Positions 16,650-63,957 of a stretch of 64,000 nucleotides of DNA are shown piece by piece. The stretch's first letter is position 1, and every line of letters begins with the position of its first letter. A program made the translations under genes and the position numbers. The DNA is from Shinella sp. Its GTDB lineage: Bacteria > Pseudomonadota > Alphaproteobacteria > Rhizobiales > Rhizobiaceae. The notes beneath the pieces are model-generated. The model saw nothing but the letters and a program-made list of their open reading frames with translations, was not told the origin of the DNA and searched no databases. The stretch covers positions 141,036-205,035 of the forward strand of contig NZ_DASYHH010000021.1 of assembly GCF_035998705.1 (NCBI RefSeq), read 5' to 3'.

Positions 16650-18428
16650 TCAAACGAGCTGGCGGCCCTTGGCGTCGATCGCGTTGGCGACCGCTTCGTC
16701 CGTGGCCTCGTCGGGCAGCAGCATTTCGTTATGCGCCTTGCCGGACGGGATCATCGGGAAGCAGTTGGCGAGGTTCGCCACGCGGCAATCGAAGATGACC
16801 GGACGCTTCACGTCGATCATCTCCTGGATCGCGCCGTCGAGATCGCCCGGCTTGTCGCAGGAAATGCCGACGCCGCCATAGGCTTCCGCGAGCTTGACGA
16901 AGTCCGGCATCGCTTCCGTGTAGGAATTCGACAGGCGGTTGCCGTGCAGGAGCTGCTGCCACTGGCGCACCATGCCCATATACTGGTTGTTCAGGATGAA
17001 GATCTTGACCGGCAGGTTATACTGGACGGCACAGCTCATTTCCTGAATGCACATTTGGATCGAGGCGTCGCCCGCAATGTCGATGACGAGGCTGTCGCGG
17101 TGTGCCACCTGCACGCCGATCGCCGCCGGGAAGCCGTAGCCCATCGTGCCGAGGCCGCCCGAGGTCATCCAGCGGTTCGGCTGCTCGAAGCCGTAGAACT
17201 GCGCCGCCCACATCTGGTGCTGGCCGACTTCCGTCGTGATGTAGGTGTCGCGGTCCTTGGTCAGCTCGTAGAGCCGCTGGATCGCGTATTGCGGCATGAT
17301 GACGTCGTTGCTGTGCTTGTAGGCAAAGGAATTGCGCGCCCGCCACTTGGCGATCGACGTCCACCAGTCGGCCTGGACCGACTTGTCATAGTCCTTCGCA
17401 CCGGCGCGCCACAGACGAACCATGTCCTCGAGCACATTGCCGACATCGCCGAGGATCGGAATGTCGACGCGGACGTTCTTGTTGATCGAGGACGGGTCGA
17501 TATCGATGTGGATCTTCTTCGAGTTCGGCGAAAAGGCGTTCAGGCGGCCGGTGATGCGGTCGTCGAAGCGCGCGCCGATGCAGACCATGACGTCGCAATC
17601 ATGCATCGCCATGTTCGCCTCGTAGGAACCGTGCATGCCGAGCATGCCCAGCCAGTTCTTGCCGGAATGCGGATAGGCGCCGAGGCCCATCAGCGTCGAG
17701 GTGATCGGGAAGCCGGTGATCTCGACCAGCTCGCGCAGCAGCCGCGAGGCCTCGGGACCGGAATTGACGACGCCGCCGCCGGAATAGATGACCGGCCGGC
17801 GCGCCGTCTTCATCAGGTGGATGGCCGCCTCGATCTGGCGGGCATCGCCCTGCAATTTCGGCTGGTAGCTCTTCTGGATCGGGGCAGCAGACGGCGGCGT
17901 ATAGGTGCCGGTCGCAAACTGCACGTCCTTCGGGATATCGACGACGACCGGGCCCGGACGGCCGGACTGGGCGACACGGAAGGCCTCATGGATGATGCGG
18001 GCGAGATCGTTCACGTCCTTGACCAGCCAGTTGTGCTTGGTGCAGGGGCGCGTGATGCCTACCGTGTCGCATTCCTGGAAGGCATCCGAGCCGATGAGCG
18101 TGGTCGGGACCTGGCCGGTGAGGCAGACGAGCGGGATCGAATCCATCAGCGCGTCCTGCAAGGGCGTGACGGCATTGGTGGCGCCCGGGCCGGAGGTGAC
18201 GAGCATGACGCCGACCTTGCCGGTAGAGCGGGCATAACCTTCGGCCATGTGGCCGGCGCCCTGCTCGTGGCGCACGAGGATGTGCTCGATGTCGTCCTGC
18301 TGGAAGATCTCGTCATAGATCGGCAGGACGGCACCGCCCGGATAGCCGAAAATATGTTCTACGCCGTTGTCCCGCAGCGCCTGCAAGACAATTTCGGCGC
18401 CCGTCATCTGGTTTTCTGTTCCGCTCAT
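16650..18428 (-). CDS. ilvI: Acetolactate synthase large subunit
   Basis: MTGAEIV, FGYPGGAVL, RHEQGAGHMAEGYAR, TSGPGATN, TPP motif GDAS..NN. Confidence 0.96.
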   Translation of the reverse strand: MSGTENQMTGAEIVLQALRDNGVEHIFGYPGGAVLPIYDEIFQQDDIEHILVRHEQGAGHMAEGYARSTGKVGVMLVTSGPGATNAVTPLQDALMDSIPLVCLTGQVPTTLIGSDAFQECDTVGITRPCTKHNWLVKDVNDLARIIHEAFRVAQSGRPGPVVVDIPKDVQFATGTYTPPSAAPIQKSYQPKLQGDARQIEAAIHLMKTARRPVIYSGGGVVNSGPEASRLLRELVEITGFPITSTLMGLGAYPHSGKNWLGMLGMHGSYEANMAMHDCDVMVCIGARFDDRITGRLNAFSPNSKKIHIDIDPSSINKNVRVDIPILGDVGNVLEDMVRLWRAGAKDYDKSVQADWWTSIAKWRARNSFAYKHSNDVIMPQYAIQRLYELTKDRDTYITTEVGQHQMWAAQFYGFEQPNRWMTSGGLGTMGYGFPAAIGVQVAHRDSLVIDIAGDASIQMCIQEMSCAVQYNLPVKIFILNNQYMGMVRQWQQLLHGNRLSNSYTEAMPDFVKLAEAYGGVGISCDKPGDLDGAIQEMIDVKRPVIFDCRVANLANCFPMIPSGKAHNEMLLPDEATDEAVANAIDAKGRQLV

Positions 18429-18484
18429 CGGATTCCCGTCCGTCTCTATTCGTATTTCGGGGTGATTATCGAATTTCTGGGCAT

Positions 18485-18509
18485 AAAAAAAGGCCCCTTG
18501 GAGGAGCCT
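18485..18509 (-). terminator. Attenuator terminator of the ilvIH leader
   Basis: Minus strand AGGCTCC-TCCAA-GGGGCCT followed by a T tract, between leader peptide and ilvI. Confidence 0.85.
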
Positions 18510-18541
18510 GCTTACCGCGCATGGGTGCTTTCGCCGGATGG

Positions 18542-18601
18542 TTACACCATCCTGCCCATGCGCGTTCCCACCACAAGAATGTTTGCCGTCAGATTTTTCA
18601 T
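18542..18601 (-). CDS. ilvL: ilv attenuator leader peptide MKNLTANILVVGTRMGRMV (19 aa)
   Basis: Hand-translated; Ile-Leu-Val-Val control codons; directly upstream of terminator and ilvI; below ORF-track cutoff. Confidence 0.85.
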   Translation of the reverse strand: MKNLTANILVVGTRMGRMV

Positions 18602-18774
18602 GGGGCGAAGTGTTAGCCACAAAGTCCACGCACGTCAACGCCCTTTCCATCTGTTTCGAAACGGCACGGATTCTCGCATATCCGGGAAAATACAACCAAT
18701 AGATGCATCACGCCGAAACGTCTTATTAAGCGGCAGCCGATAAGGTCGCTGTTTGATGGCAAGGAGTGCCGTGA

Positions 18775-20832: not shown

Positions 20833-21733
20833 AGGATAGCGGATCGATCCGCTGCCAGCCATCGTCGAGCTGGTTGCGGAACCAGGTCATCTGGCGCTTG
20901 GCATATTGCCGGGTCGCCGCCGCGCCGCGTTCGATGACCTCGGCCTCGCTCATCTCGCCTGCCAGCATCGCCGCGATCTGCGGCACGCCGATCGCCTTCA
21001 TGACGGGCATGGCGGGCGAAAGACCGAGTGCCAGCAGCGCCTTCACCTCCTCCACCGCGCCGGATCTCAGCATCGCGGCGAACCGTCGGTTGATGCGGCC
21101 GGCAAGCACCGCGCGGTCGGGCAGCACGACGATCTTTTCCGCCCGCTCCGGATCGATCACCGCCGGCCCCGCCGCCGCCTGGAACGTCGAAATCGACCGC
21201 CCCGTCGCCTCCAGCACCTCCAGCGCGCGCAGGATGCGCTGGCCGTCGCCCGGTTTCAGGCGGGCGGCCGTCTGCGGGTCGCGCTCCGTGAGGTCCCGGT
21301 GCAGGGCTTCTGCCCCTTCAGCGGCGAGCCTCCCGCGAACCCGCTCGCGAACATCGTCGGGAATGACGGGCATATCCGCCAGCCCGCCCGTCAGCGCGCG
21401 AAAATAAAGGCCCGTGCCGCCGACGAAGACCGGCAGCTTGCCGCGTGCCCTGAGCTCCGCCACGAGGCCCGTCGCCTCGCGCTGCCAGTCGCCGGTGGAA
21501 TAGGCCGCACCCGCCGGCACATGGCCGTAGAGGCGATGGTCGATGCCGCCCATATCTTCCGGCTGCGGCCGGGCCGTGAGGATGTTCAGCGTGTCGTAGA
21601 CCTGCATGCTGTCGGCATTGACCACCACGCCACCGTGCTCGCGCGCCAGCCGCACGGCGAGCGCGGACTTGCCGCTTGCCGTCGGGCCGGTTATCAGGAT
21701 CGCGTCCTGCTTTCGATCAAGGTTTCTCATCAT
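20822..21733 (-). CDS. miaA: tRNA dimethylallyltransferase
   Basis: GPTASGKS, NADSMQVY, FVGGTGLY, TRQYAKRQMTWFR. Confidence 0.96.
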   Translation of the reverse strand: MMRNLDRKQDAILITGPTASGKSALAVRLAREHGGVVVNADSMQVYDTLNILTARPQPEDMGGIDHRLYGHVPAGAAYSTGDWQREATGLVAELRARGKLPVFVGGTGLYFRALTGGLADMPVIPDDVRERVRGRLAAEGAEALHRDLTERDPQTAARLKPGDGQRILRALEVLEATGRSISTFQAAAGPAVIDPERAEKIVVLPDRAVLAGRINRRFAAMLRSGAVEEVKALLALGLSPAMPVMKAIGVPQIAAMLAGEMSEAEVIERGAAATRQYAKRQMTWFRNQLDDGWQRIDPLSSSA

Positions 21734-22622
21734 GGCTTTCGTTGCCACGCTTGTCGCCAATCCGTCAAATCCTGTCCTGACCCCAGCGCTCGCCGAAAAG
21801 GCCGCCGATCAGGTCAAGGCCTCCGGCCTCTACTGGCTCGCCGACGGCATCGCCTGCGACATCGCACTGCGCGACGGCAGCGATATCGCGGCCGCGCGCG
21901 ATACGATTCTCGTGGCGATCGGCAACACGCCGATCGATCTCGCCATTCAGGACGCGGAGACGCGGCGCAAGAAGCTGCTGATCGCCGACATGGATTCCAC
22001 CATGATCGGTCAGGAATGCATCGACGAGCTTGCCGCCGAAGTCGGCCTCAAGGAGCGGGTCGCCACCATCACCGCGCGCGCCATGAACGGCGAGATCGCC
22101 TTCGAGCCTGCCCTTCGCGAACGTGTCGCGCTGCTGAAGGGCTTGCCCGTCTCCGTCATCGACGAGGTCATCGAGAAGCGCATCACGCTCACGCCCGGCG
22201 GGCGCGAACTGATCGCGACGATGAAGGCCAGGGGCTTTTACACCGCCCTCGTCTCCGGCGGTTTCACCGTGTTCACGAGCCGCATCGCCGCCATGCTCGG
22301 CTTCGACGAGAACCGCGCCAACCTGCTCATCGATGCCGACGGCAAGCTCACTGGCGAAGTGGCCGAACCGATCCTCGGCAAGCAGGCCAAGGTGGACGCC
22401 CTCATCGAGATTTCCGAACGCCTCGGCATTTCACCGGAAGAGGCGATGGCCGTCGGCGACGGCGCCAACGATCTCGGCATGCTGCACCTCTCCGGCGCCG
22501 GCGTCGCTTTGCACGCCAAACCGGCCGTCGCGGCGGAAGCAAAGATCCGCATCGACCACGGCGACCTCACGGCACTGCTCTATCTCCAGGGATATCGCAA
22601 GTCGGATTTCGTGACGGCGTGA
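21732..22622 (+). CDS. serB: Phosphoserine phosphatase
   Basis: HAD motif ADMDST, LVSGGF, GKQAK, GDGANDL. Confidence 0.94.
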   Translation: MAFVATLVANPSNPVLTPALAEKAADQVKASGLYWLADGIACDIALRDGSDIAAARDTILVAIGNTPIDLAIQDAETRRKKLLIADMDSTMIGQECIDELAAEVGLKERVATITARAMNGEIAFEPALRERVALLKGLPVSVIDEVIEKRITLTPGGRELIATMKARGFYTALVSGGFTVFTSRIAAMLGFDENRANLLIDADGKLTGEVAEPILGKQAKVDALIEISERLGISPEEAMAVGDGANDLGMLHLSGAGVALHAKPAVAAEAKIRIDHGDLTALLYLQGYRKSDFVTA

Positions 22623-28860: not shown

Positions 28861-29157
28861 GGGGTCTCCTCTCCGGTCACGTGGCCGCCGCCATCATGGC
28901 GATCCTGCCAGACCCCATGTTTTTCACGCCGGAATGACAAGTCAAGCGCTATCGAGCGCCCGCTCTGCAACGCTACGTATTGCCCGCCCTCGCCCCAGGG
29001 TGGCATCGTCGTCCTTTCTGAAGAAATTTCCGGTAGTGAGATCCGGATAGGCCGGCCCGGCGGGCGAGCCACAACGAACGGTCGCCGCCCGGCCAACCTT
29101 CCAAATATCCTGTCACAAAACCCTTTTCTTGGGAGATGAGAGCGCCTATATACGGGG

Positions 29158-29480
29158 TGCTGCTTCGGCAGCTACGGCAATAAACGAGCGGTGTAATAAA
29201 CCCATTGGACCCGGGGGCGGTACCCGGCGCCTCCACCAAAAACCGGTCATGCGCGACCGACCGGCTTTTGATGGGGGCGAAATAGGATCGACAAGGGCGT
29301 AAAGATCGACTTTTTGCTCGGCATTGTACCACCGTTATCGGGCTAAACTTGTAGTTGCAAACGACAACTATGCGGAAGCTCGTCTCGCTGCTTAATCGCG
29401 GTGTGACACTTCACTCAAAGTCCTAAGGGGTCGCACTCTTAGGCGGGGTCCGAAGGCACCTGGCAACAGAAGCCTTCACC
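29158..29480 (+). ncRNA. ssrA: Two-piece (circularly permuted) tmRNA; outer ends approximate
   Basis: Acceptor piece ends CGCCTCCACCA at 29238; coding piece starts GGGGGCGAAATAGGATCGAC at 29273; tag frame 29357-29395 = ANDNYAEARLAA*. Confidence 0.96.
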
Positions 29481-53445: not shown

Positions 53446-53597
53446 CGCGCGTGAAAATCTGCCGTTAAGCTGCGGCACCGACGTGGTTTTAGCCGAAAAT
53501 CCGCCCCTCCTCGGCCGCGCCGCGACCGGCTTTTTCCTGATTCAAAAACAACAGCTCGTCGCAAGCTATTCCTTTTAAACGGAAATCGTGCTTATAT

Positions 53598-53611
53598 TGA
53601 ATGAACGTTCA
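53598..53611. promoter_or_regulatory. BetI-like operator site 1 (TGAATGAACGTTCA)
   Basis: Palindromic; 20 bp upstream of the Rieske start; matches sites at 56423 and 62265. Confidence 0.75.
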
Positions 53612-53630
53612 GCAAAATAAGGGGAGCGAC

Positions 53631-54830
53631 ATGAACGAGATGATCCGCGATATCAACGTTCCGAACGACTGGGACAGGAGCGGACTTCCGGGCTGGTGTT
53701 ATCACAGCCCCGCCCTTCTCGAGCTGGAGAAGCAGCATGTTTTCCGCGAGCACTGGCAGATCGCCTGCCACGTCTCCGACATTCCCGAGCCCGGCAACTA
53801 CCTTGCCATGGACGTCGTCGGCGAGCGCGCGCTCATCCTGCGCGGGCAGGACGGCACCGTGCGCGCCTTCCACAATATCTGCCGCCACCGCGGCTCGCGC
53901 CTCGTCGCCGACGAGACGGGCACGTGCCGCAACGCGCTTGTCTGTCCCTTCCACGGCTGGGTCTACAATCTCGACGGCACCTTGCGCGGCGCCGCGCGCC
54001 CCCGCAGTTTCCCGCCGCTCGACAAGGACGAGTTCGCGCTGAAATCGCTCGAATGCGAGATCTGGATGGGTTTCGTCTTCATCCGCTTCGCGCCCGGCCC
54101 GCAGCCCTCCGTCGCCGAGCTGATGAAGCCCTTCGAGGACGAACTTTCGCATTACCGTTCCGAGGAGATGGTGCCCACCGGCGGTATCTGGACGCAGGAA
54201 AGTCCGGTCAACTGGAAGTCCGTGCGCGACGTCGACAACGAGGGCTACCATGTCGCCATGGCCCACCCGGCCCTTCAGGACCTCTATGGCTCGACCTATT
54301 ACGACGAGCCCTTCGTCGACGGCCTCTGCCGGTCCTTCGCCACCTACAATCCCCATGCCGGCCGGCGCTGGAGCGTGCGCAACTACGTCAGGATATCGCA
54401 GGACAACCCGCGGCTTCCCGAACGGCTGCGCAAGGCCTGGATCTATTTCGGCCTGTTCCCGAACTGCGTCATCGCGGTGACGCCGGAGACCATGCAGTTC
54501 TACCAGGAATTCCCCATCGGCGTCGGCAGGACGTTGCTGCGCGGCGGCATCTACCGCTACCGCGACGAGGACCGCGCCCAGCGCCTCGCCCGCTACCTCG
54601 CCTACCGCATCGATCGCGACACGCAGTCCGAGGACGTGCAGCTCACCGTCTGGTCGAACGAGGCGATGACCTCGAACGCCTTTGCCGGCTTCTACCTCTC
54701 CGACCTCGAATATGGCGTGCGCACCCACCACGACCACATTCGCAAGGTGCTGCCGGTGGTGACGCTGAAGGAGGCGCCGGAAGAGACGGCGATGGCGGAG
54801 GTCAATGCCGGCCTCGCCGAAAGCCGCTAA
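53631..54830 (+). CDS. Rieske non-heme iron oxygenase alpha subunit (choline monooxygenase/GbcA/CntA-like group)
   Basis: CRHRG..CPFHGW Rieske ligands; EGYHVAMAH and a C-terminal ED for mononuclear Fe; AAGGGGAG RBS before 53631. Confidence 0.92.
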   Translation: MNEMIRDINVPNDWDRSGLPGWCYHSPALLELEKQHVFREHWQIACHVSDIPEPGNYLAMDVVGERALILRGQDGTVRAFHNICRHRGSRLVADETGTCRNALVCPFHGWVYNLDGTLRGAARPRSFPPLDKDEFALKSLECEIWMGFVFIRFAPGPQPSVAELMKPFEDELSHYRSEEMVPTGGIWTQESPVNWKSVRDVDNEGYHVAMAHPALQDLYGSTYYDEPFVDGLCRSFATYNPHAGRRWSVRNYVRISQDNPRLPERLRKAWIYFGLFPNCVIAVTPETMQFYQEFPIGVGRTLLRGGIYRYRDEDRAQRLARYLAYRIDRDTQSEDVQLTVWSNEAMTSNAFAGFYLSDLEYGVRTHHDHIRKVLPVVTLKEAPEETAMAEVNAGLAESR

Positions 54831-54842
54831 ACCACCGACATG

Positions 54843-54870
54843 AAAAAGAGGCCCGCTTTCGCGGGCCTCA
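54843..54870. terminator. Terminator between convergent Rieske and aminotransferase genes
   Basis: AAAAA-GAGGCCCGC-TTTC-GCGGGCCTC. Confidence 0.8.
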
Positions 54871-54921
54871 AACGTTTGGACCGGGGAATGTCGGTCCAAA
54901 CAGGGTCTTGTCCGGAAGGGC

Positions 54922-56358
54922 TCAGCCCTTCCAGAGCCCTTCGCGGGTCAGGTCGTCCATGGTGAGTTCGATGCCGCGGCGCAGGATCGAAGCCATGTCG
55001 TCGATCTGCGCTGTCGAGATGGTGAGCGGCGGCGACATCACGCACATGCTGATGAGCGGGCGCACCAGAAGGCCGAGTTCCTGGCAATGCCGGTCGATGC
55101 GTTTTCCCACTTCGAGATCGAGCGTCAGCGGATTGTTGCTGACCCGGTCGGCGACGCATTCGACGCAGGCCATGAGGCCGAGACCGCGCACTTCGCCGAC
55201 CAGCGGCAGGTCTTCCAGCGCCTTCAGGCTCTTCTGGAAATGATCCGACACCGCCCGTGCATGCGCCAAAAGGCCGCCTTCCAGGATGTCGAGGTTCTTC
55301 AGCGCCACGGCGCAGCCGACCGGATGGCTGGAATAGGTGAGCCCGTGCGCAAACATCGCCTCCGAATGGTTCGAACGGCGCAACTCCTCGAACAGCCGGC
55401 CTGCGATCATCACGCCGCCGAGCGGGAAATAACCGGAGGTGACGCCCTTGGCGAAGGTGATCATGTCCGGCTCGATATCGAAAACATCCTTCGACGCGAA
55501 GACATGGCCGAGGCGCCCGAAGGCCGTCACTACCTCGTCGGCGATGAAGAGGATGTCGTTGGCCCGGCAAAGCGCGTGCATGCGCTTGAGGTATCCCGCG
55601 GGCGGCACGATGACGCCGCCAGAGGCCATGACGGGCTCGGCAATGAAGGCGCCGATAGTTTCGGCCCCCTTCTCTTCTATGACCTGCCGGAATTCCTCAA
55701 CGAGGAAGTCGCAGAACGCCTCTTCCGTAATGCCTTCCGGCCGGCGGAACGGGTCCGGGCAGGAGAGTTTGACGACGAGATCCGACGCGCTGTCCATCCA
55801 GTCGTGGTCGCGCGGCCGGCCGTTGAGCGAGGCGGAGAGATAGGTCGAACCGTGATAGCCGCCCTGCCGGGAGACGATCAGCTTCTTCTCCGGCCGCCCC
55901 TTCACATTGTTGGCGAACTGCATGAAGCGCAGCGCCGTCTCCACCGCCGAGGAACCGCCCGTCGTGTAGAAAACGTGGTCGACGCCGTCGGGCGCGTGCT
56001 CGGCGAGTCGGGCAGAGAGCACAGCAGAGGGTGTGTTCGTCGTGTACCAGGGCGAATTGTAGGATAGCTCCATGGCCTGCGACGCCATGACGTCGGCCAA
56101 TTCCTTGTTGCGGTGCCCGGCATTGACGCACCACATGCCGGCAGGCCCGTCGATCAGCTTTCTGCCGCTGGCATCCGTCACATAGATGCCCTCGCCCGAC
56201 TCGATTCGCCCGCGTGCCTCGGCACCGATCGAGCCCGACATCGGCCAAGGCTGCACCAGGTGGCGCTCGGCAAGGCGGGTGATCTCGTCGCCCGCCGCCT
56301 CGCCAGCACGCAGGTCCTCGTTCGCCGTCTTCGGAATTGCCGCCATGTCCCGCTCCAT
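54922..56358 (-). CDS. Class III (omega-amine) PLP aminotransferase
   Basis: GMWCVNAGH, GGSSAVETA, YHGST, IADEVVTAFGR, TFAKGVTSGYFPLG. Confidence 0.93.
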   Translation of the reverse strand: MERDMAAIPKTANEDLRAGEAAGDEITRLAERHLVQPWPMSGSIGAEARGRIESGEGIYVTDASGRKLIDGPAGMWCVNAGHRNKELADVMASQAMELSYNSPWYTTNTPSAVLSARLAEHAPDGVDHVFYTTGGSSAVETALRFMQFANNVKGRPEKKLIVSRQGGYHGSTYLSASLNGRPRDHDWMDSASDLVVKLSCPDPFRRPEGITEEAFCDFLVEEFRQVIEEKGAETIGAFIAEPVMASGGVIVPPAGYLKRMHALCRANDILFIADEVVTAFGRLGHVFASKDVFDIEPDMITFAKGVTSGYFPLGGVMIAGRLFEELRRSNHSEAMFAHGLTYSSHPVGCAVALKNLDILEGGLLAHARAVSDHFQKSLKALEDLPLVGEVRGLGLMACVECVADRVSNNPLTLDLEVGKRIDRHCQELGLLVRPLISMCVMSPPLTISTAQIDDMASILRRGIELTMDDLTREGLWKG

Positions 56359-56422
56359 CGATTATTTACCAAGAGGATATCGCATACAACAATATGAAAG
56401 AGTTTAGGTTTCCCAATCATAT

Positions 56423-56436
56423 TGAATGTTCGTTCA
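56423..56436. promoter_or_regulatory. BetI-like operator site 2 (TGAATGTTCGTTCA, flanked by AT..ATCAAT)
   Basis: In the divergent aminotransferase/ABC promoter region. Confidence 0.78.
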
Positions 56437-56604
56437 ATCAATATTGCAGAACTGGGGCTTGATTTCAACGGGGATTTGAGCGCATGTTGTCTTCAGGGAA
56501 CACGAGAGTGCCGGATACGGAAACTCCTCAAGCCGAAAAGGCGCACATATGGGAATGGGAAGCCTCACGCTCTATGAATGTTGCCGCGAGCGGAGCCCTG
56601 CCCG

Positions 56605-57522
56605 ATGACGGCGGCGGCGTTCGACAGGATCGCTGACACGCCCGCCCCGGCAAGGCGCCGGGCCTGGACACGCAGCGAAGAGGCCCGCGGCCTCGCCATG
56701 ATCTCGCCGACCTTCCTCTATGCGCTGGCGCTGCTTTTCTTGCCCGTCCTCATCGTCATCGCCTACAGTTTCTGGACCCAGAACTATCTCGACATCGACC
56801 GCACCTTCACGCTGGAAAACTACCGCCAGGCGCTGACCGAACCGATCTACCGCGACCTCTTCATCCGCTCGCTGTGGATCTCGCTGACGGTCAGCGTCGT
56901 CACCGTCGTCTTCTCTTACCCCATCGCCTGGTTCATCTCCTTCCATGGCGGGGTGCACAAAAACCTCTGGCTCTTCCTGATCACCGTACCCTGCTGGACG
57001 AGCTATCTGCTGCGCGTCATGTCCTGGAAGGTCATCCTCGGCTATGGCGGCGTCATGAACACCGGCCTTATCTCGATGGGCCTCATCGACAAGCCGGTGA
57101 CCTCGCTGCTCTACAATTCCAACGCCGTCGTCATCACGCTGGTGCACAGCTGGGCCGCCTTCGCCATCTTGCCGATCTACGTCTCGCTGCAGAAGATCGA
57201 CCGCACCTATATCGAGGCGGCACGCGATCTCGGCGACAGTCGGCTCCGCGCCTTCTTCCGCATCACCCTGCCGCTGTCGCTGCCGGGCGTCGTCTCCGCC
57301 TTCCTGATCGTGATGATACCGACCGTCGGCGACTACGTGACGCCGCGCCTCGTCGGCGGCAAGGACGGCGTGATGATCGCGACCGCCATCCAGGCGCAGT
57401 TCGGCAAGGGCGCGAACTGGCCGCTGGGTGCCGCCCTCTCCGTAACGACCATGATCCTCGTGTCGCTGACGGCCGCAGCCGTCGTGCTGGCGCTGAAATT
57501 CACCGTGCGGAGGATCAAATGA
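56605..57522 (+). CDS. ABC transporter permease (PotB-like)
   Basis: TM helices; EAARDLG EAA loop; NWPLGAALS. Confidence 0.92.
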   Translation: MTAAAFDRIADTPAPARRRAWTRSEEARGLAMISPTFLYALALLFLPVLIVIAYSFWTQNYLDIDRTFTLENYRQALTEPIYRDLFIRSLWISLTVSVVTVVFSYPIAWFISFHGGVHKNLWLFLITVPCWTSYLLRVMSWKVILGYGGVMNTGLISMGLIDKPVTSLLYNSNAVVITLVHSWAAFAILPIYVSLQKIDRTYIEAARDLGDSRLRAFFRITLPLSLPGVVSAFLIVMIPTVGDYVTPRLVGGKDGVMIATAIQAQFGKGANWPLGAALSVTTMILVSLTAAAVVLALKFTVRRIK

Positions 57523-58343
57523 CAATCCTCACGCAACGCTTGCGTTTCATTCCGTGGCTGCCGGTCTATGTCGCGGTCTATTTCCTCTTCCTCTACCTGC
57601 CGATCCTGCTGCTGCCGGTCTTCTCCTTCAACAATGCGGCGACGACGACCTTCCCGCTCGCCGGCTTCACCACCAAATGGTACGCCTCGCTCGCCGGCAA
57701 TTCGGTGATGATGGAAGCGGCCTGGAACAGTCTGGTCGTCGGCATCTCGGTCGCGCTGCTCTCGACGGTGCTCGGCATCTGCGCGGCCCGCGCCATCACG
57801 CGATACCGCTTTCGCGGCCAGAGGGCGGCGGCCGGCCTCATCATGGCGCCGCTCTTCCTGCCGGAAATCATCGTCGCGGTCTCGCTCCTGATGATCGTGC
57901 TCGCGATGGGCATCGAGCTTTCGCTCGTCACCATCATCCTCGGCCAGACCGTGTTCTGCGTGCCCTATGCCATGTCGGTGCTCGTCTCCGGCTTCGAGGG
58001 CTTCGACCGCAGCCTGGAAGAAGCCTCCTACGATCTCGGCGAAACCGCCATCGGCACCTTCCGGCGCGTCACGCTGCCGGTGGTCGCACCGGCCATCGTC
58101 TCCAGCCTGCTCGTTACCTTCACCATCTCGCTCGACGAGTTCATCCTCGCCTTCTTCCTGTCCGGCACCGCGCCGACGCTGCCGGTCTATATCTGGGGCC
58201 AGCTGCGTTTCGCCGCCAAGCTGCCCGGCGTGCTGGCGCTCGGCACGATCATGCTCGTCGCCTCGATCCTCATGCTCACCCTTGCCGAAGTCCTGCGCCG
58301 CCGTGCCGAACGCCGCACGCAATTGGCGCTCATCCTGCCCTAG
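57519..58343 (+). CDS. ABC transporter permease (PotC-like)
   Basis: FLYLPILLL..FSFN, GFTTKWY, EEASYDLG, FTISLDEF. Confidence 0.92.
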   Translation: MTILTQRLRFIPWLPVYVAVYFLFLYLPILLLPVFSFNNAATTTFPLAGFTTKWYASLAGNSVMMEAAWNSLVVGISVALLSTVLGICAARAITRYRFRGQRAAAGLIMAPLFLPEIIVAVSLLMIVLAMGIELSLVTIILGQTVFCVPYAMSVLVSGFEGFDRSLEEASYDLGETAIGTFRRVTLPVVAPAIVSSLLVTFTISLDEFILAFFLSGTAPTLPVYIWGQLRFAAKLPGVLALGTIMLVASILMLTLAEVLRRRAERRTQLALILP

Positions 58344-58353
58344 GAGGCGCGCA

Positions 58354-59463
58354 ATGCCCGACCGTCCCATGATCGAGATCCAGAACGTCTCGAAGTTCTA
58401 CGGCATCTACAAGGCGCTCGACGACGTCTCGCTGACCATCGGCGAAGGTGAGTTCTTCTCGCTGCTCGGCCCCTCCGGCTGCGGCAAGACCACGCTGCTG
58501 CGCTCGATTGCCGGCTTCGAGACGCCGACGGCCGGCGAAATCTTCATCGACGGCGCGCCGTCGCTCGCCCTGCCGCCAAACAAGCGGCCGACCAACATGG
58601 TGTTCCAGAACTACGCCATCTTCCCGCATCTCGACGTCGCCGAAAACGTCGCCTACGGCCTGAAGCGGCTGAAACTCTCGCCGGAAGACGAGAAAAAACG
58701 TGTCGGCGACGCGCTCGACCAGGTCCGCCTCTCGGGCTTCGGCCAACGCAAGGCGCACGAATTGTCCGGCGGCCAGCGCCAGCGCGTGGCGCTCGCCCGC
58801 GCCCTCGTCATGCGTCCGAAAGTATTGCTGCTCGACGAGCCGCTCTCAGCCCTCGACAAGAAGCTGCGCGAGGAAATGCAGGTGGAGCTGCGCACGCTGC
58901 AAAAGGCCGTCGGCATCACCTTCATCCTCGTCACGCACGACCAGTACGAGGCGCTGGCGCTCTCCGACCGCATCGCCGTGATGTTCGGCGGCCGCATCGC
59001 CCAGATCGCGACACCGAAGGAAATCTACCAGCGCCCGCGCACGCGAAAAGTCGCCGATTTCCTCGGCGGCATGAACTTTTTGAAGGCGAAGGTGCTCGGC
59101 GAACAGGGCAATGCCGTCTCGGTTGACGCCGCCCGCTTCGGCGCGGTCAACCTCGACAAGCCGCACGGTTTTAGCGCCACAAACGGCCACGTCACCGTCG
59201 GCATCCGCCCGGAACGCCTGCGCCTCCTGTGGGACGACGACCGCGCCCAGCACGAACTCGCCGGCCGCATTCAGAACCGCGCCTATTTCGGCGAAGTCAC
59301 CCATCTCACCGTCGGCGTCGACGGGCTGGAGCAGCCGCTCTCCATGGTCGAGACCAACGATCACGGCGCAGACGACCTGCCGATCGGTGCAGAAATCCGC
59401 CTCGCCTATGATCCAGATGCGTTCGTGCTTTTGGCAGAAGACGAAGCGGTGCGACGGGTTTGA
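58354..59463 (+). CDS. ABC transporter ATP-binding protein (PotA-like)
   Basis: GPSGCGKT, VFQNYAIFPH, LSGGQRQR, LLDEPLSALD, TOBE-like tail. Confidence 0.95.
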   Translation: MPDRPMIEIQNVSKFYGIYKALDDVSLTIGEGEFFSLLGPSGCGKTTLLRSIAGFETPTAGEIFIDGAPSLALPPNKRPTNMVFQNYAIFPHLDVAENVAYGLKRLKLSPEDEKKRVGDALDQVRLSGFGQRKAHELSGGQRQRVALARALVMRPKVLLLDEPLSALDKKLREEMQVELRTLQKAVGITFILVTHDQYEALALSDRIAVMFGGRIAQIATPKEIYQRPRTRKVADFLGGMNFLKAKVLGEQGNAVSVDAARFGAVNLDKPHGFSATNGHVTVGIRPERLRLLWDDDRAQHELAGRIQNRAYFGEVTHLTVGVDGLEQPLSMVETNDHGADDLPIGAEIRLAYDPDAFVLLAEDEAVRRV

Positions 59464-59523
59464 GCGATAGCGAATAGAAGGTAGCGCCTAGAAACTATTC
59501 GCTACTCCCTATTCGCTATTCGC
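59464..59523. repeat. Inverted arrays of the heptamer CTATTCG
   Basis: Right arm CTATTCG-CTACTCC-CTATTCG-CTATTCG (59495-59522); left arm GCGATAG-CGAATAG-AAGGTAG (59464-59484) on the opposite strand. Confidence 0.7.
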
Positions 59524-59531
59524 CCCTCTTC

Positions 59532-60614
59532 TCAATACCCCGATTTGATCTTCTCGAATTCGGCGATCATCTTCTGGCGCAGCTCCGTCGGGATCGGCGC
59601 CTGGAAGAGCGTGTTGGCGACGAAGGAGTCGACATCCGCATAGCCCTTGTCGGCAAGGATCTTCGGATCGACCGCGGCCATGCCCTTGGCGTTGGAATGG
59701 CCGTAACCCCAGTTCTCCACCATATAGGCGGCTACGGCCGGATCGGTGACGGCGTTGAGGTAGTCATAGGCGAGATCGGGGCTGCCTTCGCCGTCCTTCA
59801 GCCGTGAATAGCCGCAGACCCAGGTCGAAAGCCCTTCCTTCGTATCCTTCTTGATCACCACCGGCTGGCCCTCGGCTTGCAGCGTCGTCGCCGTCTCGTT
59901 CCACGCCCAGGCAAGATCGACCTCGCCGCTGGCCATCGCCTGGCTGAGATCCGTATTGTCCGTCCAATAGAGCCGTACGTTCTGGTGCACCGCGCGCAGG
60001 AAGGCCGACGCCTCCTGGAATTGCGCATCCGTCATCGCCGTCAGGTCCTTGAGGCCGATGGCGAGGCCCGCCAGCGCATAGGCGTCGTCGACATTGTCGC
60101 CGATCGACACGCGGTCCTTGAATTTCGGATCAGCAAAGGCCTTCAGCGAGGCGACTTCCTCGGGCTTCACTGTATCCGTACGGTAGGTCAGCACCGTATT
60201 GCCCCATTCGAAGGGAAGGAACCAGGCCGTGCCGTCCTCGGCCGTCATGAGGTTTTTCATGCCCTTGAAGGCCGGCAATATGTCGTTCCATGCCGTGAGT
60301 TTCGACGTGTCGAGAGGCTCCAGCAGCCCGGCCTCGCGCCATTTCACGATACTCTGCGCGCAAGGATGCGCGATATCGGCCTTGAAGCCGGAACGCAGCT
60401 TCTGGAAGGCCTCTTCCTCATCGCCGAAGAACGAGAAATCCGGCGAACCACCATGTTTTTCCACATAGGCGGGGTGGAAGGCCGGGTCCTCGTAGCCGGA
60501 CCAGTCGAAAACAGTGAGCGTATCGGCGGCGACGGCGGGAAGCGCAGTTGTAAGGGCGAGGAGAGCGGCCAATGCCGCCATTGTGGTGCGCTTGGCCCTG
60601 TTTGCAGTCTTCAT
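59532..60614 (-). CDS. Extracellular solute-binding protein (PotD/PotF-like)
   Basis: Signal peptide; LTVFDWSGY, PFEWGNT, MASGEVDLAWAW, GLSTWVCG. Confidence 0.9.
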   Translation of the reverse strand: MKTANRAKRTTMAALAALLALTTALPAVAADTLTVFDWSGYEDPAFHPAYVEKHGGSPDFSFFGDEEEAFQKLRSGFKADIAHPCAQSIVKWREAGLLEPLDTSKLTAWNDILPAFKGMKNLMTAEDGTAWFLPFEWGNTVLTYRTDTVKPEEVASLKAFADPKFKDRVSIGDNVDDAYALAGLAIGLKDLTAMTDAQFQEASAFLRAVHQNVRLYWTDNTDLSQAMASGEVDLAWAWNETATTLQAEGQPVVIKKDTKEGLSTWVCGYSRLKDGEGSPDLAYDYLNAVTDPAVAAYMVENWGYGHSNAKGMAAVDPKILADKGYADVDSFVANTLFQAPIPTELRQKMIAEFEKIKSGY

Positions 60615-60643
60615 GCCGTACTCCTTCCCCGTTTTCGGGTTCC

Positions 60644-61309
60644 CTATTGTGGTTGTGGTCCTTGAAGCGTGAGATGTTTCGGGAAGGCGATCACGACGAA
60701 GGCGATTGCCGCCTCCAGCGCCTTTTCCCGCGTCGTGCCGTCGCCCATCATCAGGCGCAGCCACAGGCCTTCCAGCATGGCGCAGAGCGCCAGCGCCATC
60801 GGCTCCGGCTCATAGCCATAGCCGCCCTCGGCCCTCAGCTCGGTGCAAAGCGAGATCACCGTTTCCTGGTATTTGACGTCACGCGCGCCGCAGAGCGCCT
60901 GATAGGTCGGCCGCGACTTCGCCTCGCCCCAGAACGCGCACCAGGCGGCAAGCTTGCGCTTGGTGCAGATCTTGCGGTCGAAATCCGCGTGCACGATGGC
61001 CCACAGGCGGCTGGCAACGCTTGGGCCGGCCTTTTCCAGCGCGGCATTCCAATGGTCGCCATACTCTTCCGACATATATTGCAGCGTCGCGATGAGCAGG
61101 TTTTCCTTGCTCTCGAAATGGAAGTTGACGATGCCGCGGGAAAGGCCGGCGCCGTCAGCCACGTCGGCGAGCGTTGTGTCGGAATAACCGCGCTTGGCGA
61201 GCGAATCGATCGTCGCCTCGATGAGCTGCTGCCGCCTCGTTTCCTTGGAAGCCTTGCGTCCCCGCTTCTCGCCGTCGCCCGAGCCCTGTTCAGCCCCGCC
61301 TGCCCGCAT
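60644..61309 (-). CDS. TetR family regulator, BetI-like
   Basis: RRQQLIEATIDSLAKRG, GLSRGIVNFHFESKENLL, WCAFWGEA, LEGLWL. Confidence 0.88.
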   Translation of the reverse strand: MRAGGAEQGSGDGEKRGRKASKETRRQQLIEATIDSLAKRGYSDTTLADVADGAGLSRGIVNFHFESKENLLIATLQYMSEEYGDHWNAALEKAGPSVASRLWAIVHADFDRKICTKRKLAAWCAFWGEAKSRPTYQALCGARDVKYQETVISLCTELRAEGGYGYEPEPMALALCAMLEGLWLRLMMGDGTTREKALEAAIAFVVIAFPKHLTLQGPQPQ

Positions 61310-61350
61310 CTTCACCGTCACCTTGCCTCTGGGATTTCTGAGCACCACGG

Positions 61351-62169
61351 TCACGGGTTCACTCCCGCGGCCGGCTTGCTGCCGCGCAGATGAGTGGGAC
61401 AATGCTCTCCGCTGTCAAGAACCTTCTGCATGGCCGTCCAGGTGCGGATATTCTTCGCGACATGGGCTTCGCCCACGGCCTCCACCGCCGCTGCGTAGAG
61501 CGGCCCCTTCAGGCGTTCAAGCTCACCGCGCGCCACCTCGCGATACCAGGCATTGCGGCTTTCGGCCGTCGCATCGATGAAGCCCGCCGCCGCCATCGCC
61601 GCAAGATAGCGGCGCGGCGAGGCCATGCCGAAATGCAGCCCCTCGGCGGCAATATAGTCGGTCATGTCCACGCTCGGCTCACCGTCATGGCCGATCAGCC
61701 AGTCGGAGGCGGCAAACCTGCCGCCGGGTTTCAGCACGCGGAAAAGCTCGGCGAAGAGGGCCTCCTTGTCCGGCACGTGGATCATCGCATCCTTGGAAAA
61801 GACGATGTCGAACTCTCCGTCGTCGAACGGCAGGCGGCCGGGTGGGCTAGACACGAACCGCGCGACGGCGGAGAGCGCTGCGGCATCAGCCGCCGCCCTC
61901 GCCCGCTTGATGACCGGCTGCTCCACGTCGTAGCCGACGATCTGCGCCGGCCCGTAGGTCTTTGCCAGATGCAAGGTGATGCCGCCGGCGCCGCAACCGA
62001 AATCGAGAACGCGTTTGCCCTTGAGGTCGACACCCGCAATCACGCGATCGACTTCCTCTGGTCCACCGGGAGACAGGTATCCTTCTCCCCAAAGGACGCC
62101 GAGGAAGCGGATCGCCGCCTCGTCATATTCCGGCGCCCCTGCCGCATCGCCTTCAACCACTGCCGTCAT
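61351..62169 (-). CDS. Class I SAM-dependent methyltransferase, phosphoethanolamine N-methyltransferase-like
   Basis: [45 protein letters not shown]. Confidence 0.82.
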
Positions 62170-62264
62170 GGCATTCCCTTGTCGTGGTCCCTGATACCGG
62201 CTGACCGGCGCTCGTCCATGGGTCGAAATTCTAGCGCATAATCAGGCGATTGCAAGATACTTGC

Positions 62265-62278
62265 TGAATGATCATTCA
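62265..62278. promoter_or_regulatory. BetI-like operator site 3 (TGAATGATCATTCA; perfect 16-bp palindrome 62264-62279)
   Basis: In the divergent methyltransferase/flavoprotein promoter region. Confidence 0.78.
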
Positions 62279-62337
62279 GAATAACTGGACAAGGTTTTGC
62301 TTTTGATGCAGCTTTTAGAAACAAGGGAGACATCAAA

Positions 62338-63957
62338 ATGCAAAAGTACGATGCCCTGATCGTTGGCGGCGGCCATAATGGGCTGGTCACGGCCTGCTAT
62401 TTGCAGCGCTCCGGCCTCAACGTTCTCGTCGTGGAAAAGAATGGGTGGGTCGGCGGCGCGGCGACAAGCCGGGAGCTCACCCCCGGCTTCCTCTATTCCA
62501 ACTGCTCCTACGTCTGCTCCCTCTTCCGCCCGGAGATCATGCGCGACCTCGAACTGCCGAAACACGGCCTCCAGGTCATCGCCTACGAGGGCGGCGCGGT
62601 CTTCACGCGCGACGGCGACTACCTCGCCTCCTACCGCGACCACGACAGCCATCGCCGTGAATTCGCCCGCTACTCCAGGCGCGACGCCGAGGCCTATGAG
62701 CGCTACGCCCGCGACGTCACCCGCCAGTGCCGCTTCATCCAGCCGCTTCTGATGCGCACCGCACCCGACCCGTTCAGTTTTCGCCCGCGCGACATTTCCG
62801 AGCTGCTCTATCTCGCCAAAAAATTCGGGGAGTTCAGCCCGCACGAAATGGCCGAGACGCTGCGCTTCTGGACCATGTCGATCTCCGACTATCTCGACGA
62901 ATATTTCGAAACCGACGTCATCAAGGCCTATCTGGCGCTGTCCGGCATCATCGGCACCGCGCTCGGCCCCATGTCGCCGGGCACGGCCTATGTGCTGCTC
63001 CATCACTATATGGGCGAAGTCGACGGCTCGGTCGGCGCCTGGGGTTATGCCCGCGGCGGCATGGGCGCGGTGACGCAGGCGCTCGCCCGTTCCTTCGAAT
63101 CGGTCGGCGGCACCATCCGCACCGATGCCGAGGTCTCCAAGATCTTGACCCGTGGCGGGCGCACGACCGGCGTCGTGCTCGCCAACGGCGACGAGGTGCG
63201 CGCCGATCTCGTCGTCTCCAATGCCGACGTGAACCGCACCTTCCTGAAGCTCGTCGACGAGGAATCGCTTCCGGGCGACTTCGTCCACCGGGTAAAACAC
63301 TTCAAGATGCGCGGCTCGTCGGGCAAGGTGAACATCGCGCTCGACAGCCTGCCGGAATTCCCGGCGCTGCCGGAAGGCTCCTCCTGCATGCGCGGCGACA
63401 TGCATTTCACCGATTCCATCGAGCGCATGGAACGCGCCTATGACGACTGGAAGGATGGCCGCTGGTCGGCCGATCCCTTCCTCGACATGGTCATCCCGAC
63501 GACGCTCGACCCGACCATGGCCTCGCCCGGCAAACATTTCATGAGCTGTTTCGTGCAATATTGCCCGCCGAAGGTGGAGGGCCGCGACTGGACGGATGCC
63601 GACCGCGACGCTTTCGCCGAAACCGTCATCAGCCAGATCGCCAGCTATTCGCCGGGTTTTCGCGAGCGCATCGTCCATATGGAGGTGCGCACGCCGCGCG
63701 AAATCGAGAACGAGGTGGGCCTCACGGAAGGCAACATCTTTCAAGGTGAACTCACCTTCGACCAGCTTCTCTTCAACCGGCCGGTGCCGGGTTACGCCCA
63801 GTACCGCAGCCCCATCGCCGGCCTCTACATGTGCGGCTCCTCCACCCATCCGGGCGGCGGGGTGATGGGCGCGCCCGGGCGCAACGCCGCCGCCGAAATC
63901 CTGCGCGACCTGAAGCGTACCCCCGAACAGATGAGCAAAGCCCATGACGTCATTTGA
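62338..63957 (+). CDS. Phytoene dehydrogenase-like (PYROXD2-type) FAD oxidoreductase
   Basis: IVGGGHNG, YARGGMG, GNIFQG, YMCGSSTHPGGGVMGAPGRNAA. Confidence 0.9.
   Translation: MQKYDALIVGGGHNGLVTACYLQRSGLNVLVVEKNGWVGGAATSRELTPGFLYSNCSYVCSLFRPEIMRDLELPKHGLQVIAYEGGAVFTRDGDYLASYRDHDSHRREFARYSRRDAEAYERYARDVTRQCRFIQPLLMRTAPDPFSFRPRDISELLYLAKKFGEFSPHEMAETLRFWTMSISDYLDEYFETDVIKAYLALSGIIGTALGPMSPGTAYVLLHHYMGEVDGSVGAWGYARGGMGAVTQALARSFESVGGTIRTDAEVSKILTRGGRTTGVVLANGDEVRADLVVSNADVNRTFLKLVDEESLPGDFVHRVKHFKMRGSSGKVNIALDSLPEFPALPEGSSCMRGDMHFTDSIERMERAYDDWKDGRWSADPFLDMVIPTTLDPTMASPGKHFMSCFVQYCPPKVEGRDWTDADRDAFAETVISQIASYSPGFRERIVHMEVRTPREIENEVGLTEGNIFQGELTFDQLLFNRPVPGYAQYRSPIAGLYMCGSSTHPGGGVMGAPGRNAAAEILRDLKRTPEQMSKAHDVI

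Follow-up and report, generated by a model that had tools for sequence, protein, structure and literature searches.

What binds the three copies of a short palindrome that stand among the genes of a catabolic cluster in Shinella sp., and do they make one regulon of it? The cluster lies in contig NZ_DASYHH010000021.1 (assembly GCF_035998705.1), chromosomal DNA assembled from an algae metagenome, from which we analysed a stretch of 64,000 nucleotides (nt; positions 141,036 to 205,035 of the forward strand), here called the window and numbered from its own first letter. A previous examination of the letters alone (the sequence-only reading) had noticed three palindromic 14-mers, one just before a Rieske oxygenase gene and one in each of two divergent intergenic regions, and had proposed that they control five transcription units as operators of a BetI-like TetR-family regulator encoded in the cluster. 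The three 14-mers and their placement at the heads of all five units are confirmed, and the comparative evidence set out below makes it very probable that they are operators of the cluster-encoded TetR (60644-61309), while the proposal that the operator set delimits one regulon is strongly supported by the same kind of evidence. The sites and the genes that they accompany are as follows.

53598-53611: site 1, TGAATGAACGTTCA, its final base 19 nt 5' of the Rieske ATG at 53631
53631-54830, plus strand: unit 1, Rieske non-haem-iron oxygenase alpha subunit (PF00355, PF00848)
54922-56358, minus strand: unit 2, class III (omega) aminotransferase (NF005447, 686 bits > 618; PF00202)
56423-56436: site 2, TGAATGTTCGTTCA, in the divergent region between aminotransferase and permease
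56578-59463, plus strand: unit 3, operon for a PotB/PotC/PotA-like ATP-binding cassette (ABC) importer, comprising a PotB-like permease (56578-57522), a PotC-like permease (57519-58343) and a PotA-like ATPase (58354-59463)
59532-60614, minus strand: PotD/PotF-like periplasmic substrate-binding protein (SBP), last gene of unit 4 (PF13416)
60644-61309, minus strand: BetI-like TetR-family regulator, 221 amino acids, unit 4
61351-62169, minus strand: S-adenosylmethionine-dependent methyltransferase, first gene of unit 4 (PF08241 and related models)
62265-62278: site 3, TGAATGATCATTCA, a perfect palindrome between the methyltransferase-TetR-SBP operon and the FAD oxidoreductase operon
62338-63957, plus strand: CrtI/amine-oxidase-type FAD (flavin adenine dinucleotide) oxidoreductase, first gene of unit 5

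The five transcription units are defined by gene orientation, and the three sites stand at all five heads. The TetR with its BetI-type ligand domain is the sole regulator gene of the cluster. In orthologues, unit 5 extends further, with a second FAD oxidoreductase, a GcvT-type aminomethyltransferase and an open reading frame (ORF) of 81 amino acids, and the cluster exceeds the end of the window. The methyltransferase gene is optional, being present in 55 of 86 loci and missing, for instance, in Shinella zoogloeoides ATCC 19623 and Rhizobium sp. SL42; in loci that have it, it is the first gene of the TetR operon, and the distance from site 3 to the FAD oxidoreductase gene is about 60 nt with or without it.

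The plainest answer to our question would be that an AT-rich palindrome recurs by chance in AT-rich intergenic DNA, and it can be said for this answer that the pattern was defined after the sequence had been looked at. That pattern, TGAATGWWCRTTCA, has three matches in the 64 kb against 0.02 expected from shuffles preserving dinucleotide content, none of which reached the observed count, and a broader consensus derived from the orthologues, TGAAYRNNYRTTCA, returns exactly the same three matches against 0.03 expected. A search of the window allowing two mismatches adds one match only, at 17044 (TGAATGCACATTTG), which falls inside a gene, does not have the invariant TTCA and is no more than chance would give. 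Moreover, the same positions are kept in about 80 species while their flanks diverge, and because of these conservation data chance recurrence is refuted, retaining next to no probability.

Conservation was assessed over 85 orthologous loci from Rhizobiaceae, Phyllobacteriaceae and one Rhodobacteraceae genome. Plasmid and chromid records, searched with megablast, yielded four loci, in Shinella zoogloeoides, Shinella sp. PSBB067, Ensifer adhaerens and Rhizobium sp. SL42, the last with a rearranged cluster; each of the four has all three sites. A scan with a TetR alignment, restricted to one genome per species, gave 556 relatives, the best 80 of which (68-98% identity) were taken with 10-kb flanks; they represent Shinella, Rhizobium, Pararhizobium, Mycoplana, Ensifer/Sinorhizobium, Ciceribacter, Mesorhizobium, the one Rhodobacteraceae genome and others. 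On each locus the cluster genes were mapped, and the best motif match upstream was scored per gene class with a threshold of at most two mismatches.

The motif is conserved in 78 of the 80 TetR-anchored loci. In 58 of 59 loci it is found 15-22 nt (mode 19) upstream of the Rieske ATG; it occupies the aminotransferase/permease B region in 74 of 77, stands about 60 nt before the ATG of FAD oxidoreductase 1 in 80 of 81, and is found in every case upstream of the first gene of the TetR operon, be it the methyltransferase (55 loci) or TetR itself (26 loci). Conservation in orthologous upstream regions, named by the sequence-only reading as a check on its proposal, is thus borne out. Upstream of the internal genes (SBP, permease C, ATPase, FAD oxidoreductase 2, aminomethyltransferase) there is no match within two mismatches, the best having 3-4, which equals background, and the small ORF hypB has a single match, with one mismatch, among the 27 upstream regions scored. 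In the flanks from 85 genomes (~1.7 Mb), used as a background sample, the unit heads hold 213 of 215 motif instances, and the remaining two, with two mismatches each, do not satisfy the strict consensus, which has no off-target match in those flanks or in the other 53 kb of the window. The position of the sites at the unit heads is kept through rearrangements of gene order.

Across the orthologues the consensus is TGAAYR-NN-YRTTCA, with TGAA (positions 1-4) and TTCA (11-14) constant, YR at positions 5-6 and again at 9-10, and any base at 7-8; the centre of site 2, for instance, varies among orthologues (TT, TC, GA, GC and others), with the arms retained. From centre to centre, the two invariant tetranucleotides are separated by 10 bp. 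When the three intergenic regions are aligned across orthologues, conservation is highest at the sites, their surroundings diverge, and site 1 is the sole invariant block of its alignment upstream of the Rieske gene. Invariant arms around a free centre would be the pattern expected of a dyad protein site. Site 2 can be expanded to an 18-bp dyad, ATTGAATG-TT-CGTTCAAT. The ATAT flank reported to be common to the upstream sides of sites 1 and 2 (tatatTGAATG, catatTGAATG) is real and kept in orthologues; being one-sided, it is more likely a -10-like promoter element than a part of the dyad. Promoter-like elements lie close to all three sites:

53592-53597, plus strand: -10-like TTATAT after TG, directly 5' of site 1
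56394-56423, plus strand: weaker promoter-like ATGAAA-18-CATATT of the permease operon (recognized by eye, 8/12, below the scan threshold), its -10 abutting site 2
56440-56468, minus strand: promoter-like TTGAAA-17-(TG)AATATT of the aminotransferase gene, predicted by a scan tool, its -10 being 3 nt from site 2
62228-62255, minus strand: predicted promoter-like TTGCAA-16-TAGAAT of the methyltransferase-TetR-SBP operon, kept in orthologues
62286-62292, plus strand: invariant TGGACAA, 7 nt right of site 3

The element before site 1 is conserved as TG.TTatAT across 50 unique orthologous contexts; no convincing -35 was found for this promoter. As site 1 directly follows TG.TTATAT and ends 19 nt short of the Rieske ATG, transcription would have to begin within the site or beside it. 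The longest Rieske ORF opens with an ATG that belongs to the palindrome (53601, in tgAATGaacg); the conserved start is at 53631, with the Shine-Dalgarno sequence aaggggag, and an automatic gene caller could therefore put the Rieske start codon inside the operator. At site 2, the flanking hexamers are kept in orthologues on both strands, as AATATT with TG on the minus strand and as the -35 TGA with the AT.T flank on the plus strand. The aminotransferase transcription start is predicted to fall inside the operator, because the -10 is only 3 nt away, and site 2 would overlie both start points of a pair of overlapping divergent promoters, an arrangement like that of the E. coli bet divergon. Site 3 is placed differently: TTGCAA (62250-62255) lies 9 nt to its left, and this hexamer and TGGACAA, both kept in orthologues to about the same degree as the operator, could represent the -35 boxes of two divergent promoters, TGGACAA possibly that of the FAD oxidoreductase gene. 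Alternative -10-like hexamers beside site 3 are readable on both strands. A sigma-54 promoter 3' of site 3 was also considered, for the GG-N10-GC spacing of TGGACAA-N-TTGC fits in the window, and was rejected when the -12 TTGC was found in only 19 of 80 orthologous contexts.

This geometry raises the question whether the conserved blocks are themselves core promoter elements or RNA leader hairpins, as they abut conserved -10-like hexamers and keep fixed distances to start codons (Rieske, 19 nt; FAD oxidoreductase, ~60 nt). A stem of 6 bp with a 2-nt loop is, however, too small for a stable RNA hairpin, and two of the sites serve divergent genes, hence act as DNA. Symmetry, invariant outer tetranucleotides and a free centre are the signature of a protein dimer rather than of a sigma factor, and the sigma-54 reading near site 3 failed, all of which makes a promoter or RNA element very unlikely.

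Public RNA runs yielded only contigs of relatives (~90% identity), without direction or ends, and no transcription starts. One contig of 2.1 kb, from a relative, extends over the SBP gene into the TetR gene and lends weak support to their co-transcription. Separately, in two metatranscriptome runs the segment 58300-59000, within the ABC ATPase gene, shows ~100-fold higher contig depth with numerous chimeric joints. The cause is cross-mapping from many organisms that share conserved ABC motifs, not expression of the window gene.

If the palindromes are a dyad protein site, which protein reads them? Evidence on this comes from loci in which the regulator has diverged. A protein search with the FAD oxidoreductase led to two distant clusters on Rhodobacterales plasmids, the only two diverged lineages available. 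In Fuscovulum ytuae a single operon comprises all the structural genes and diverges from the gene of a TetR with 45-51% identity, and the single intergenic region carries one different 18-bp dyad, TGATTGAC-AA-CTCAGTCA. In Parasedimentitalea marina, whose TetR is 35% identical, a stretch of 23.6 kb has exactly two copies of the perfect palindrome TTGAGCGCTCAA, each of them in a divergent region of the cluster. The recognition-helix segments differ in step with the palindromes (GLSRGIVNFHF, GLSHGLVLFHF and GLSQGVAVFYF). Because the sites follow the unit heads, the fused operon has a single dyad and the dyad changes with the diverged regulator, the palindromes are best explained as the operators of this TetR itself. 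Among the last genes of the F. ytuae cluster (locus L088), which has two tandem Rieske genes, are an amidohydrolase and a cupin of the dimethylsulfoniopropionate-lyase family (21647-22498; PF16867, 4.9e-18), which may be a clue to an onium-compound substrate of marine origin.

Two of the 80 loci might seem to break the link between TetR and motif, and were ruled out as exceptions: both are orphan TetR genes (82-84% identical) without the cluster, one in a Shinella metagenome-assembled genome (L020, 10001-10657) and one in Shinella sedimenti (L023, 10001-10663), and neither locus contains TGAA-N6-TTCA. In S. sedimenti the orphan is flanked by AcrB and a second TetR on one side and by an amidase, Tlde1 and a methyl-accepting chemotaxis protein (MCP) on the other, which also enclose the intact cluster, both in the window and in Shinella lacus CPCC 100929, a close relative whose TetR is 98% identical to that of the window. 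With the same outer neighbours, we conclude that the cluster has been lost by deletion around the regulator, the operators disappearing with their target promoters; the orphan implies two deletions that spared only the regulator gene.

FNR/FixK boxes and the rhizobial iron-responsive operator are likewise built on a TGA...TCA dyad, and the Rieske enzyme is an iron-sulfur protein, which together bring to mind a regulator encoded elsewhere (FNR/FixK/CRP-type or RirA) that would bind the sites while TetR controls something else. The FNR/FixK box is TTGAT-N4-ATCAA (TGA-N6-TCA) and the rhizobial iron-responsive operator TGA-N9-TCA. The local spacing, by comparison, is TGA-N8-TCA without exception, as against N6 and N9, respectively. 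A global site would not be confined to the cluster, yet strict off-targets number zero in the flanks and in the rest of the window, nor would it be replaced by other palindromes in step with the divergence of TetR. We therefore regard an external regulator as improbable.

With the local TetR as the preferred reader of the sites, its relation to BetI can be asked, as the sequence-only reading had called it BetI-like. The regulator has a TetR_N domain (PF00440, 2.5e-12, residues 60-105 of the long ORF) and a BetI-type C-terminal domain (PF13977, 5.6e-16), the latter also precomputed for all listed TetR homologues; an alternative GTG start at 61354 gives a 236-amino-acid form that is common in databases. 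It falls below both cut-offs for BetI equivalogs (TIGR03384, 121 bits vs 201.3; NF001978, 115.2 vs 118), whereas genuine BetI proteins of Shinella and Sinorhizobium score 240-258, and it is 24-29% identical to genuine BetI proteins, 29% in the case of E. coli BetI. Its helix-turn-helix (HTH) segment is invariant across five orthologues, and it carries a conserved basic, Lys/Arg-rich N-terminal arm, KRGRKASKETRR, which genuine BetI lacks. No bet genes (betA, betB, betC, betT) are linked to the cluster, in the window or in the orthologous loci mapped, and the database names of this TetR, such as 'repressor of bet genes', are generic or automated. The term BetI-like thus holds for the PF13977 domain and for the likeness to the E. 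coli box, not for BetI itself, given the sub-cut-off scores and the different register of the genuine alphaproteobacterial box. Because of these scores, the absence of linked bet genes and the different genuine box, the local regulator is, on comparative grounds, a BetI-type paralogue with its own operator class and not BetI, and choline is unlikely to be its inducer.

The likeness to BetI boxes stated by the sequence-only reading is real and, for the E. coli box, close. The E. coli betI-betT intergenic region contains TTATTGATTGGACGTTCAATATAA, the operator used in a synthetic BetI gate (PMC7058928). It is identical to site 2 in its 21-bp context (ATATTGAATGTTCGTTCAATCA) at 17 of 21 positions and fits the 14-bp core at 11 of 12 specified positions; in the aligned register the two operator sequences are near-identical (ATTGATTGGACGTTCAAT vs ATTGAATGTTCGTTCAAT). 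The two systems further resemble each other in that a TetR-family protein with PF13977 has its dyad at divergent promoters, between or overlapping them, and one of these promoters transcribes the operon of the regulator itself; they differ in that the local TetR has three operators and five units, and E. coli BetI one operator.

Among alphaproteobacteria the likeness is looser. The DNase-footprinted box of Ruegeria pomeroyi BetI1 is ATTGACG*CGTCAAT (PMC12442346). The boxes before genuine betI genes in Shinella (TTATTGATTGATCACTCAATTAA), Sinorhizobium (TTATTGATTGATGGATCAATCAA) and Paracoccus (TTCATTGATTGACGAGTCAATCAATGA), identified as such by score in the first two and by record annotation in Paracoccus, have in common an ATTGA-N4-TCAAT core with a tandem ATTG repeat outside it, the Shinella bet box being TTATTGATTGATCACTCAAT. 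It was at first conceivable that the genuine box differs from the local motif by spacing alone; this was rejected, as the tandem ATTG repeats embed TGA-N8-TCA there too. What remains as a difference is the symmetry axis and the invariant A4/T11. Shinella sp. PSBB067 carries a genuine betI-betC-betB operon and the cluster on one replicon, and its bet box, read in the local register (TGATTGATCACTCA), fails exactly at A4 and T11, which are invariant in all 213 local sites. As in R. pomeroyi (BetI1/BetI2) and at the betICB(A) operators of Shinella and Sinorhizobium, BetI-type paralogues of one genome have their own promoter-overlapping palindromes with a TGA/TCA dyad core in common; the local motif differs in being TGAA-N6-TTCA and in targeting an amine-catabolic island rather than bet genes. 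On Sinorhizobium meliloti pSymA a second gene annotated betI (L007, 8986-9597) has as neighbours a betB-like aldehyde dehydrogenase, a small Rieske protein, an amidohydrolase and a binding protein, and is another BetI paralogue, possibly with its own regulon.

These comparisons bear on the question whether the sites are bound mainly by a genuine, choline-sensing BetI, which would place the island in the choline/betaine regulon. That the E. coli operator fits the local core at 11 of 12 specified positions, that the betI-betC-betB operon shares a replicon with the cluster in PSBB067, and that genuine boxes hold a TGA-N8-TCA pair from the tandem ATTG half-site would all agree with it. Genuine alphaproteobacterial boxes are, however, centred on ATTGA-N4-TCAAT, the Shinella box fails two positions invariant in the local sites, at sites 1 and 3 the outer ATTGA/TCAAT is missing from one side, and the motif is always found together with the local TetR and differs where that TetR differs. 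Binding mainly by genuine BetI is hence highly improbable.

Taking the local TetR as the regulator, a mechanism can be proposed. One TetR homodimer would sit on each TGAAYR-NN-YRTTCA dyad, the 10-bp spacing of the arms corresponding to one helical turn, so that the dimer would touch two successive major grooves. Unliganded TetR on the three sites would keep five units off, namely the Rieske gene, the aminotransferase gene, the PotBCA-like importer, the methyltransferase-TetR-SBP operon and the FAD oxidoreductase operon; with its own gene in unit 4, the regulator would control itself. Sites 1 and 2 directly follow -10-like hexamers, which would probably put the operator over transcription starts. 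In the TetR family, ligand binding frees the repressor from DNA. Here, the pathway substrate or an early intermediate may bind the BetI-type C-terminal domain, whereupon the DNA would be released and the whole island induced. Binding, repression, autoregulation, the inducer and the pathway chemistry are what we infer from the comparisons. The scheme resembles TetR/tetO, QacR, AcrR and TtgR in that an HTH dimer binds a short palindrome and the regulator gene is adjacent, often divergent. It differs in that three dispersed operators coordinate five units of a catabolic island and in that site 3 lies between two predicted -35 boxes, not over a -10 or a transcription start.

Several observations weigh against this proposal or qualify it. 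Site 3 is upstream of the -35 of the best predicted TetR-operon promoter, which is not a classical position for repression, so that autoregulation there is uncertain and the effect could even be positive. In at least one cluster-carrying genome a genuine BetI recognises a related box; cross-binding by it is possible, and the proposal does not need it. Finally, all loci were found via TetR or via cluster genes that always adjoin a TetR, and none of the clusters covered lacks this regulator. Nevertheless, on the comparative record both central claims of the sequence-only reading hold up: that the palindromes are operators of the local TetR is supported by their presence in 78 of the 80 loci, their absence before internal genes and at the orphans, and their covariation with TetR, and that the island is one regulon by sites at the unit heads despite rearrangement and by the fused cluster with a single palindrome.

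What the regulon may be for is suggested by its enzymes. The nearest solved relatives of the Rieske protein are the carnitine monooxygenase CntA (6y9c, 1.6e-33) and the Stc2-type demethylase 3vca, and its best NCBIfam match is the glycine betaine monooxygenase GbcA, at 134 bits against a cut-off of 670. Two FAD amine-oxidase-type proteins adjoin a folate-binding GcvT protein. In structure databases the SBP has spermidine/putrescine-binding proteins as relatives, and the FAD oxidoreductase generic phytoene-desaturase relatives. Curated models, solved structures and a literature search for the enzyme combination gave no clue to the substrate, and a text search of the literature with six site 14-mers (three from the window, three orthologous variants) gave no match. 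A consistent reading of the chemistry would be stepwise N-demethylation of a trimethylammonium-type omega-amine by the Rieske and FAD/GcvT enzymes, followed by transamination. The substrate would accordingly be an N-methylated or quaternary amine, and a cationic amine as TetR ligand would be in line with the BetI-type domain.

The known pathways of quaternary-amine demethylation offer the closest comparison. GbcAB, DgcAB and SoxBDAG (glycine betaine), CntAB (carnitine) and Stc2/HpbBC (proline betaine) resemble the cluster in having a Rieske protein of the CntA/GbcA/Stc2 group, and dimethylglycine and sarcosine demethylation in having FAD amine-oxidase-type enzymes beside a tetrahydrofolate-type GcvT aminomethyltransferase. 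Unlike them, the local cluster reaches no curated equivalog model and encodes no reductase partner, and a class III aminotransferase and a polyamine-type importer are integral to it. It is possible, though on balance we would not call it probable, that the cluster encodes an undescribed pathway for a betaine-type or N-methylated omega-amine of plant or algal origin, with TetR as a new small-molecule sensor; candidate substrates are beta-alanine betaine, gamma-butyrobetaine, trimethyltaurine and a methylated polyamine. In such a pathway the CntA/GbcA-like Rieske enzyme and the two FAD enzymes with their separate GcvT would strip the methyl groups, and the class III aminotransferase would remove the nitrogen. 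TetR would then use almost the E. coli BetI operator for another ligand, its specificity resting on A4/T11.

The palindromes are thus predicted, from comparative evidence, to be an operator set of a known regulator type that defines a conserved, uncharacterised catabolic regulon. They turn a loose gene neighbourhood into a defined regulon of five units and 12-13 genes, found in Rhizobiaceae, Mesorhizobium and some Rhodobacterales, and are the best available evidence that the Rieske enzyme, the aminotransferase, the polyamine-type importer and the FAD/GcvT module share one pathway. Concepts of gene regulation are unchanged by the finding. It does provide an experimental handle, since a TetR knockout or an operator-reporter fusion would permit an inducer screen and, through it, lead to the identity of the substrate. 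It may also illustrate how nature keeps BetI-type paralogues of a single genome apart, by a similar half-site in another register and with other invariant positions, which could be of use for the design of orthogonal TetR-family switches.

Elsewhere in the window, two structured RNAs were recognized. At 29120-29480 lies a two-piece (permuted) alphaproteobacterial transfer-messenger RNA gene (Rfam RF01849, 305 bits). On the minus strand, 18475-18596 matches the Rhizobiales small RNA family Atu_C8 (RF02502, 112 bits), just 5' of the Pfam-supported part of a thiamine-pyrophosphate enzyme (ORF 16650-18695, domains from residue 97), so that the match may be the leader of this enzyme gene rather than a free-standing small RNA.

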